The notes under the pieces are model-generated. The model made no database searches. It worked only from the letters and a program-made list of their open reading frames with translations, and was not told the DNA's origin. The position numbers and the translations under genes were made by a program. A DNA stretch of 30,664 nt, taken from positions 1 to 30,664 of the IMG/VR virus record IMGVR_UViG_2802429251_000007. The stretch is one strand, 5' to 3'. The stretch comes from a virus. Lineage: Duplodnaviria > Heunggongvirae > Uroviricota > Caudoviricetes. Every line of letters begins with the position of its first letter. Position 1 is the stretch's first letter. Shown here piece after piece: positions 2,545-3,495 of the stretch.

Positions 2545-2834
2545 TGGTGGATTTACGTAAAGCGGCGCGGGGGCAGATGTGCACCGTCAGAATTCCTGGC
2601 TACTGCAATCACAATCCCGAAACATCTGTGCTGGCGCATTACAGGCTGGCGGGGACGTGCGGAACAGCGACAAAACCACACGATATGCAGGCAGCGATTG
2701 CCTGCAGCTCATGCCACGATTTAATCGACGGGCGGGTAAAAACCAGCGATTACACCAAAGAAGAATTACGCCTGATGCATGCAGAAGGTGTTTTTCGTAC
2801 GCAAGAAATCTGGAGAAAGGAAGGTTATTTATGA
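2544..2834 (+). CDS. ybcO: YbcO-like protein (DUF1364), putative nuclease
   Basis: MVDLRKAARGQMCTVRIPGYCNHNPETSVLAH...ACSSCHD resembles DLP12 YbcO from memory; ATG overlaps upstream stop (TAATG). Confidence 0.65.
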   Translation: MVDLRKAARGQMCTVRIPGYCNHNPETSVLAHYRLAGTCGTATKPHDMQAAIACSSCHDLIDGRVKTSDYTKEELRLMHAEGVFRTQEIWRKEGYL

Positions 2835-3385
2835 TTTACCCAACAAATACAGGCAAAAGCGGGGAACACCTTCGTCTCACCACGCTGGAAAGTGTCTGGA
2901 TTCAGGGAAAACTGCGCATGTGGGGGCGCTGGTCGTATATTGGCGGCGGTAAGACGGGAAATATGTTCAACCAGTTGCTGACCTCTAAAAAGCTGACAAA
3001 AACGGCAATTAACGAGGCGCTCCGGAGGATGAAAAAAGCAGGTCTGGACAAACCTGAACTTGAGGCTTTTTTGCGGGATATGATCAACGGCAAGCAAAAA
3101 AGCTGGCTGGTGCATTGTACTGATGCAGAGGCGTTATGCATTGATCGGGTGATTAGTGAAGTGCTGGTAGAACACCCAGGATTGATTTGTATCCTCCGGC
3201 AACGATATGAAGGGAGGGGGATGACTAAGCGAAAAATGGCTGAATTGCTGAATGACGCACACCCTGAGTGGTGTTTCCGGACGTGCTGCAGTCGGGTAGA
3301 TGTATGGCTAAATCTTGCTGAATATATGCTCTATCTACCGATGCGTGATGCATTCTCTTCCGGGGATCTAAAAACCGTTTGTTGA
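2831..3385 (+). CDS. putative late-gene antiterminator (Q-like), 184 aa
   Basis: ATGA overlap with ybcO-like stop; GGAAGG upstream; position after DUF1367/DUF1364 and immediately before a strong promoter plus terminator fits Q; family identity not verified. ORF-track entry 2579..3385 is an upstream extension artifact. Confidence 0.45.
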   Translation: MIYPTNTGKSGEHLRLTTLESVWIQGKLRMWGRWSYIGGGKTGNMFNQLLTSKKLTKTAINEALRRMKKAGLDKPELEAFLRDMINGKQKSWLVHCTDAEALCIDRVISEVLVEHPGLICILRQRYEGRGMTKRKMAELLNDAHPEWCFRTCCSRVDVWLNLAEYMLYLPMRDAFSSGDLKTVC

Positions 3386-3411
3386 CTCAATCTGTTATCC
3401 GGGGCTATATT
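3382..3411 (+). promoter_or_regulatory. candidate late promoter (pR'-like): TTGACT -35, TATATT -10, 18-bp spacer
   Basis: -35 at 3382-3387 overlaps Q-like stop codon; -10 at 3406-3411. Confidence 0.4.
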
Positions 3412-3472
3412 CCTCACGCGCCAGCAAAATCTGGCGTCGGGATTGGCGTCCCGGATGTTTACGGAGCGATAT

Positions 3473-3495
3473 GAGACGCGCCCGCGTCTTTTTTC
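3473..3495 (+). terminator. intrinsic terminator (tR'-like) downstream of candidate late promoter
   Basis: GAGACGCG-CCC-GCGTCT hairpin followed by TTTTTT. Confidence 0.6.

Follow-up and report, generated by a model that had tools for sequence, protein, structure and literature searches.

Which promoter serves the Q-like antiterminator of this phage? The question is raised by one locus in a 30,664-nt stretch of viral DNA (IMG/VR virus record IMGVR_UViG_2802429251_000007, Caudoviricetes; the whole stretch is called the window here). The stop codon of a Q-like gene lies inside the -35 element of a promoter, and an intrinsic terminator follows shortly after. The original prediction read this as the late control layout of lambda, pR'/tR': a constitutive late promoter, a short terminated transcript and Q-dependent readthrough. 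We come to a different answer. The promoter and terminator at 3382-3495 are most likely the isrK unit of an antirepressor cassette and not the pR'/tR' of this Q. The unit that belongs to this Q is very probably a second one, at 5000-5117 beyond the cassette, which we call unit B. The locus is an isrK/C4 antirepressor cassette joined to a member of the DUF1133 branch of the Q21-like antiterminators. Both are of known kinds, and the locus is homologous to the Gifsy-1 locus.

The elements of the first unit are indeed where they had been described. The TGA of the Q-like gene sits inside TTGACT, an 18-nt spacer and TATATT follow, and a GC-rich hairpin with six T is present about 61 nt past the -10 (Table 1). 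The promoter scores 10 of 12 consensus positions and ties for the best promoter match in positions 1-8000. As a class, promoter-like sites are not enriched in these 8000 positions (9 found, 10.2 expected in shuffles). Hence, the case for a promoter at 3382-3411 rests on conservation and on experiments with its homologue. Six homologous modules, found independently, all have TTGAC and ATCCGGGGCTATATT unchanged. The Rfam isrK model (RF01394) matches from position 1 to 77 of its 77 positions with 75.6 bits (cut-off 50). Its first position would put the start of the transcript at 3418, within the interval 3412-3420 that had been predicted. The Rfam motif for the a1 and b1 targets of C4 (c4-a1b1, RF03163) matches the same element, also at full length, with 52.2 bits (cut-off 46.7).

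The unit has been studied in Gifsy-1 (antQ-isrK-orf45-anrP-isrJ; Hershko-Shalev et al. 2016, PMC4825925), whose module shares 78-81% nucleotide identity with ours. Promoter activity, the short RNA, readthrough, pairing of b1 with b' and activation of antirepressor translation by IsrK are all taken from the Gifsy-1 experiments. There, the isrK promoter is needed for transcription of isrK-orf45-anrP (280 Miller units with it, 3 without). Most transcripts stop as the 77-nt IsrK and a part is read through, while a processed RNA, STnc1160, arises downstream. IsrK provided in trans lifts anrP translation 140-fold, and the antirepressor then switches on the operon containing antQ (PMC4825925). With +1 at 3418, the published IsrK residues G28 and G31 fall in box b1 UUGGCGU (nt 26-32), and the compensatory pairs G28A/C162U and G31A/C159U map onto b1 and b' ACGCCAA (nt 158-164). 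Because the numbering fits, the helix proven experimentally in Gifsy-1 is the b1:b' contact of a c4-type system. Of the original prediction for this unit, a promoter making a short terminated transcript, the homologue of the 77-nt IsrK, with partial readthrough, is supported. Its role as a Q-dependent late control unit is not.

The two loci share the order of a Q gene, a promoter at the Q stop codon, the 77-nt IsrK with its terminator, a C4-like RNA (STnc1160), an ORF6N antirepressor and a second promoter/terminator, as well as the published pairing residues in boxes b1 and b'. They differ in the Q gene, which belongs to PF06323 in Gifsy-1 and to DUF1133 here. Box a is UCACCG there and UACGGAG here, and in Gifsy-1 isrJ takes the place of unit B as the second unit. 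Conservation does not extend to the orf45 frame, which in our locus runs in frame into the antirepressor ATG; only here is the antirepressor gene split by IS1.

Two conserved stretches of the unit deserve mention on their own. The 15-mer ATCCGGGGCTATATT (3396-3411) comprises the 3' half of the spacer and the -10, and does not vary among the six modules, which are otherwise 72-100% identical. It could be a protein binding site; no tested feature accounts for its conservation. The loop of IsrK hairpin 1, GCAAAAUC (3424-3431), is likewise invariant and part of the Rfam consensus; it contains CAAAAT and an A-rich stretch. No complement to this loop was found in C4.

Does the unit belong to the Q gene in front of it? 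According to a study of the Q21 structure, there are three Q families without significant sequence similarity, and each Q needs its own binding element (doi 10.1101/651190). Because the families are dissimilar and the binding element is family-specific, one invariant promoter cannot plausibly serve all of them. We collected IMG/VR modules by a plain search of viral contigs with the promoter 15-mer (a gapped pattern search matched none); all counts from this sample are among the matches listed. Directly upstream of 101 modules we find 35 DUF1133 Q genes, 21 Q genes of the Q82 type, 3 of the Q933W type and, in 42 cases, no recognised Q. Six upstream open reading frames (ORFs) from these 42 were compared with Pfam: one is a lambda-type Q (PF03589), one NinE and one DUF551/Lar, and three remain unmatched. 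The isrK unit is thus seen behind Q genes of DUF1133 (PF06576), PF06323, PF06530 and PF03589, or without any adjacent Q. The nin region of the Shiga toxin (Stx) phage PA28 contains the module ahead of an antirepressor gene. Q933W lies 3 kb further downstream there, with tRNA genes and stx2 behind it. The genes directly downstream of 3382-3495 in the window are the C4 RNA and the antirepressor, not late genes. A family-specific Q binding element would travel with its Q, and the unit at 3382-3495 does not. Hence, it is most likely not a pR'/tR' unit: the same unit stands behind four Q families or none, and the unit matched to this Q lies downstream.

One could nevertheless hold that 3382-3411 is the late promoter, that the adjacent Q loads there and reads through 3473-3494, and that the antirepressor, the tRNAs and the lysis genes all depend on Q. 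In favour of this, the Q gene lies immediately upstream and its stop codon falls within the -35. Transcription from the promoter is strong and constitutive and yields a short terminated RNA, and at least 60 of the 101 cassettes directly follow a Q gene. A -10-like CAAAAT at +8 to +13, with A2 and T6, could be a pause element; the hexamer belongs to the conserved loop of hairpin 1 in IsrK. In Gifsy-1, moreover, triggering the AntQ-inducing circuit increases the long transcript about 8-fold (PMC4825925). All this has to be set against a promoter and leader that stay the same behind four Q families, three of them mutually dissimilar, and without an adjacent Q. The unit is also dissimilar to the motif found beside DUF1133 genes without a cassette, and the sequence downstream of the cassette argues in the same direction.

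This downstream sequence follows the Q family. In the cassette-less relatives L004, L005, L009, L010, L011 and L014, a homologue of unit B starts at the Q stop codon. Where a cassette is present, the unit directly after the antirepressor gene is unit B in all 20 DUF1133 loci with enough sequence. It is an isrJ-like unit in 17 of 17 Q82-type loci, and a sequence like the 933W pR' in two of the three Q933W-type loci. Unit B itself occurs in none of the 17 Q82-type loci and in 1 of 39 modules without a recognised Q directly upstream; modules of this last kind almost never carry any of the three Q-matched units. In Klebsiella and Enterobacter phages without the cassette, it is the isrJ-like unit that starts at the Q stop codon, the Q gene being of the Q82 type. 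Since unit B abuts the Q stop codon in the absence of the cassette and tracks the Q family, the cassette is an insertion between Q and its presumed own unit. In the window it separates the two by 1.6 kb, or 0.8 kb without IS1. We therefore take the first unit to be that of the cassette, and consider its use as late promoter by the adjacent Q quite unlikely.

The isrJ gene of Gifsy-1 can be seen in the same light. With its promoter it lies directly after anrP (4836-4947 of locus L003), and a homologue lies at the stop codon of a Q82-type gene (PF06323), for example at 2501-2589 of locus L033. It looks like the terminated late-promoter transcript of Q82-type phages. A search of the window for an IsrJ homologue with Rfam found none, which fits a tie of isrJ to Q82-type genes.

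What does unit B consist of? The block TTsAAT-N5-TAnGCT is conserved throughout the family in the aligned loci and reads TTCAAT-N5-TACGCT in the window. TTGCAT lies 17 nt upstream of TTCAAT, within two 8-bp direct repeats, TTGCATTT and TTGCACAT. The block is followed by about 25 conserved bases and, 50-110 nt later, by an intrinsic terminator whose hairpin differs between loci; the one in the window is the strongest terminator of the region. In a more distant subfamily with proteins of 192 amino acids (aa) the elements of unit B overlap the 3' end of the Q gene. The block can be read in two ways. TTsAAT may be the -10, in which case TAnGCT would be a sigma-dependent pause element at about +1 to +6; the spacing would then resemble that of lambda pR', where the pause element comes 6 nt after the -10. 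Alternatively, TAnGCT may be a -10, often TG-extended, and TTsAAT part of the Q site.

Against our reading, unit B is not called as a promoter by a simple consensus scan, since the second position of TTCAAT is not A. Unit B might then be no promoter but the end of the early operon, a 3' untranslated region with a terminator. The DUF1133 protein would not be a promoter-loaded antiterminator, and the late genes would be expressed in some other way. Such a view gains some room from the uncharacterised state of the DUF1133 proteins and from an AlphaFold model that is poor and has no fold match. However, a plain terminator needs neither TTsAAT-N5-TAnGCT nor a conserved 30-nt stretch upstream, and the hairpin is the part that is freely swapped. 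The three most important positions of a -10 element, T, A and T, are retained in the block, and the DUF1133 protein has profile-level homology to Q21. Unit B also sits ahead of several terminators and the lysis genes. The three closely spaced terminators ahead of the holin gene fit a late operon that needs antitermination. We regard a mere terminator as improbable, and a Q-cognate promoter/terminator remains our reading of unit B.

A further promoter-like site, at 5264-5291, was considered as late promoter and rejected. It travels with the tRNA genes and is missing in two relatives that carry unit B, L005 and PEC422.

The antiterminator itself had been named from its position. Here homology bears the identification out, and the protein does not belong to an unrelated family. 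The Q-like ORF matches Pfam DUF1133 (PF06576) over its full length (E=1.7e-106) and PHROG 753, 'anti-termination protein Q-like' (E=8.5e-80). Its match to PF06530, the family of Q21 and Q933W, is barely above the cut-off (26.9 bits, cut-off 26). As a single sequence it matches the structures of phage 21 Q weakly (E=0.02). A profile of 19 family members matches Q21 in the PDB (6p18/6jnx) with E=5e-9 over profile positions 95-182, which is most of the C-terminal two-thirds. The N-terminal motif W..G.L..WG.W is also common to the DUF1133 family and Q21. Judged by these matches, the Q-like ORF is a homologue of Q-type antiterminators and a distant relative of Q21.

DUF1133 is a narrow, enterobacterial family. 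When 1.8 billion representatives were searched with the single sequence, there were 71 matches, mostly fragments, and no direct bridge to Q21. The AlphaFold2 model, built on a 23-sequence alignment in which all members are at least 74% identical, is poor (predicted local distance difference test 61, predicted template modelling score 0.44), and a Foldseek comparison of this poor model with the PDB gave no match below E=3. Because the model is too poor, the link to Q21 is drawn from sequence profiles. In an earlier survey of Stx phages, DUF1133 carries the label 'Q antiterminator (HHpred)' (PMC8136144). We also considered that the C-terminus of Q had been swapped along with the cassette, and rejected this; it is merely more diverged, not replaced.

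Another Q-like family may exist. In one IMG/VR locus (L098) an ORF of 202 aa without a Pfam match ends 18 nt before the promoter 15-mer of an isrK module. It contains W..SLL..WGEGVGG, which resembles the N-terminal motif of DUF1133 and Q21.

How does the cassette work? Its order is promoter, IsrK (a1/b1), C4, a second pair a2/b2 over the ribosome site, and the antirepressor gene. The Rfam C4 model (RF01695) matches at full length with 77.6 bits (cut-off 45), and the predicted fold has a minimum free energy of -45.9 kcal/mol (z=-4.6). Box a' of C4, UUCCGUAC, pairs with a1 over 7 bp and with a2, GUACGGAG, over 8 bp. Box b' pairs with b1 and b2 over 7 bp each. The duplex energies of whole RNAs are no better than those of shuffled sequences for C4 with IsrK (-53.4 vs -48.1±5.8) or with the leader (-38.9 vs -35.2±4.7), a measure that ignores intramolecular structure. 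It was therefore replaced by complementarity and covariation of the boxes.

The boxes covary. Among the six modules that similarity searches gave, the three copies of a given box change in concert; the types of box b are TTGGCGT/ACGCCAA, TTAGCAC/GTGCTAA, TTGGTCT/AGACCAA and TTTGCAC/GTGCAAA. Across 78 modules, 8 types of a' and 9 types of b' are seen in 15 combinations. All of them are self-consistent, each box type being Watson-Crick complementary to its own IsrK and its own leader. Mean helices within a module are 5.9, 7.1, 7.1 and 7.2 nt long, whereas boxes taken from modules of different type pair over about 4 nt. Across 31 module variants, the 'orf45' frame that overlaps C4 (3526-3660 in the window) shows no conservation: 23 stop early at 16-38 codons, three overlap or end on the antirepressor ATG, and three, including the sequence type of the window, fuse with the antirepressor in frame. 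The lack of a conserved frame fits a region that is selected as RNA. From its sequence, 3418-3660 behaves like the c4 system of P1 and P7.

One Salmonella prophage (L008) holds two isrK-C4 modules, one in the nin region (790-976) and one after a DUF1133 gene (4088-4268). They differ in both a and b boxes and therefore should not cross-talk.

Citron and Schuster reportedly found in 1990 that the c4 antisense RNA of P1 and P7 controls icd-ant. In the immI operon of P1/P7, C4 blocks icd-ant expression (PMC8198154). As in P1/P7, one transcript carries a1/b1, the a'/b' antisense RNA, and a2/b2 at the ribosome site ahead of an antirepressor, and the specificity types differ between related elements. 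Unlike P1/P7, the system here belongs to a lambdoid prophage, and the upstream targets a1/b1 form a small RNA of their own, cut off from C4 by an intrinsic terminator. There is no conserved icd-like ORF with translational coupling here; instead, the ribosome site at which a2 lies is that of the antirepressor itself. The antirepressor is of the ORF6N type and not of the P1 type, and the promoter is not known to be under repressor control.

We propose the following sequence of events, which joins the family memberships, the complementarity and covariation of the boxes and the tie between unit B and the Q family, all computed here, to what is known from Gifsy-1. The constitutive promoter at 3382-3411 would start RNA at about 3418, in the lysogen mostly as IsrK and to some extent with readthrough. 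The readthrough RNA would carry C4 and the antirepressor mRNA. Boxes a' and b' of C4 would pair with a2 and b2 of the leader; since a2 covers the Shine-Dalgarno sequence, this pairing would keep the antirepressor untranslated. Boxes a1 and b1 of IsrK would compete for C4 in cis and in trans, and an excess of IsrK would free the ribosome site. The antirepressor would then inactivate the prophage repressor, so that the early operon including Q is expressed. Q would load at 5000-5117 and not at 3382-3411, and the polymerase would pass the terminator there and three more into the lysis and structural genes. The decoy action on C4 and the loading of Q at unit B are steps that we infer.

Taken as a whole, an inserted antirepressor cassette together with a Q-cognate unit B is, in our judgement, a good and likely explanation of the locus. 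A wider reading is more tentative and, though possible, falls short of even chances. In it, IsrK would correspond to the 'a1b1' half of a c4-type system, split off from the rest, and act mainly as a decoy for C4. Decoy, antisense and target would form a switch of three RNAs with at least 15 mutually orthogonal types, an RNA layer of immunity over antirepressors that docks preferentially between Q and the late promoter.

Several points weigh against the account of an inserted cassette and a Q-cognate unit B. The IMG/VR sample is redundant and was picked with a 15-mer from the promoter itself. The start site, the readthrough and the processing in the window are predicted from homology. The authors of the Gifsy-1 study favour refolding of the long mRNA together with orf45 translation, and in their hands constitutive STnc1160 strengthened the toxicity of IsrK (PMC4825925), an effect that a simple decoy model would not predict. 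AntQ of Gifsy-1 disturbs termination globally, so some effect of Q on the IsrK terminator is possible. Finally, about 58% of the sampled cassettes stand at a Q junction, which could be a functional tie and not a convenient insertion point.

In the window, the protein output of the cassette is dead, because the antirepressor gene is split by IS1; the RNA parts are intact. IS1 sits six codons into the gene. Removing it in silico with one target duplication restores an ORF of 185 aa, which matches the PHROG 2379 anti-repressor (E=3e-94) and Pfam ORF6N. An intact copy is found in a related phage (L001, 5829-6410). The insertion is absent from all 5,426 complete E. coli genomes, and the uninterrupted arrangement is found in complete E. 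coli genomes at 99.3% identity.

Unit B resembles the pR'-tR' units of lambda, 21, 82 and 933W: a Q21-related gene, a putative promoter, a -10-like element and a terminator stand before the lysis genes. The Q21 binding element has two 8-bp subsites (Yin et al. 2019, doi 10.1101/651190), which the direct repeats of unit B recall. Unlike these units, 3382-3495 lacks family specificity. A further difference is that Q and its presumed cognate unit are separated here, and binding and pausing by the DUF1133 protein are predictions. StxS (Sy et al. 2020, PMC7547250) offers a parallel of another kind: a short terminated RNA from a constitutive prophage promoter beside Q, with a regulatory role of its own in lysogens. 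In contrast to IsrK, which comes from a cassette promoter and acts on its own operon, StxS comes from a true late promoter and acts on host targets. The parallel applies better to unit B and isrJ than to IsrK.

The distinction between the two units has practical consequences. RefSeq labels the Q-like gene of the intact locus only 'DUF1133 family protein'; the 270-nt gap behind the gene is left empty and the RNAs are unnamed. A reading by position would therefore name the first promoter and terminator the late switch. Separating the two units changes predictions on the activation of lysis genes and, in Stx phages with a DUF1133 Q, of toxin genes (PMC8136144). It links a studied Salmonella small RNA, IsrK, to the classical c4 mechanism of P1. 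It also gives TTsAAT-N5-TAnGCT with the TTGC repeats upstream as a candidate loading-site motif for an uncharacterised branch of the Q21 superfamily. The new points are modest: the junction of Q and late promoter as a favoured docking site, isrJ and unit B as likely terminated late-promoter RNAs, and many types of RNA specificity. If the decoy reading is true, the published mechanism of IsrK would be revised, and the genuine terminated RNAs of the late promoter would be isrJ in phages with a Q82-type Q and unit B in those with a DUF1133 Q.

Table 1. Features of the Q-cassette-unit B region, in window coordinates.
Feature	Position	Strand	Basis or details
YbcO/DUF1364 gene	2544-2834		upstream neighbour of the Q-like gene; lysis genes on the other side
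Gene for a Q-like antiterminator of the DUF1133 family (184 aa), distantly related to phage 21 Q	2831-3385	+	ORF and profile matches; ATG 2831, TGA 3383-3385
PisrK-like sigma-70 promoter	3382-3411	+	-35 TTGACT 3382-3387; 18-nt spacer; -10 TATATT 3406-3411; inferred +1 G3418
IsrK-like 77-nt small RNA	3418-3494	+	Rfam isrK RF01394; same element as c4-a1b1 motif 3405-3457
IsrK hairpin 1	3418-3437		
IsrK hairpin 2, box b1 UUGGCGU	3443-3449 (box)		
IsrK box a1 UACGGAG	3460-3466		
IsrK intrinsic terminator	3473-3494		hairpin 3473-3490, U run to 3494
C4-type antisense RNA, counterpart of Salmonella STnc1160	3522-3606	+	Rfam C4
C4 box a' UUCCGUAC	3564-3571		loop
C4 box b' ACGCCAA	3578-3584		single-stranded
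Antirepressor leader with second target set	3607-3660	+	b2 UUGGCGU 3611-3617; a2 GUACGGAG 3642-3649
Antirepressor Shine-Dalgarno GGAG	3646-3649		inside a2; start ATG 3658-3660; read from sequence
ORF6N-type antirepressor gene, split by IS1	3658-4991	+	5' end 3658-3674; 3' part 4451-4991
IS1, 768 bp	3675-4442	+	insA/insB on + strand; 8-bp target duplication CAAATCTC at 3667-3674 and 4443-4450
Unit B, candidate Q-cognate late promoter/terminator	5000-5117	+	homology to Q-abutting sequence of cassette-less relatives
Unit B TTGCAT	5000-5005		
Unit B 8-bp direct repeats TTGCATTT/TTGCACAT	5000-5015		
Unit B TTCAAT	5023-5028		
Unit B TACGCT	5034-5039		
Unit B conserved leader	to ~5063		
Unit B terminator	5084-5109		followed by T run
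tRNA-Thr(UGU)	5355-5430	+	downstream of unit B
tRNA-Gly(UCC)	5434-5508	+	downstream of unit B
Three more intrinsic terminators	5779-5798, 5819-5836, 5928-5943	+	ahead of holin gene, ATG 5969 (PF16931)

The window also holds a toxin-antitoxin element of the hok/sok type. The sok RNA (Rfam RF01794, 108.6 bits) at 1166-1340 overlaps a Hok-like ORF (1278-1490). Many related loci have the element too, and in one of them (L016) it lies between the DUF1133 gene and its unit B.

Two host labels among the related loci look doubtful. One is that of 'Actinobacillus phage vB_Apl-pPE4' (L001, PP818812.1), whose record shares 97% identity with this prophage region of E. coli type. The other is that of a contig assigned by binning to Candidatus Nanosynbacter (L012, JARKOR010000130.1), which carries a DUF1133 gene that is 91% identical.

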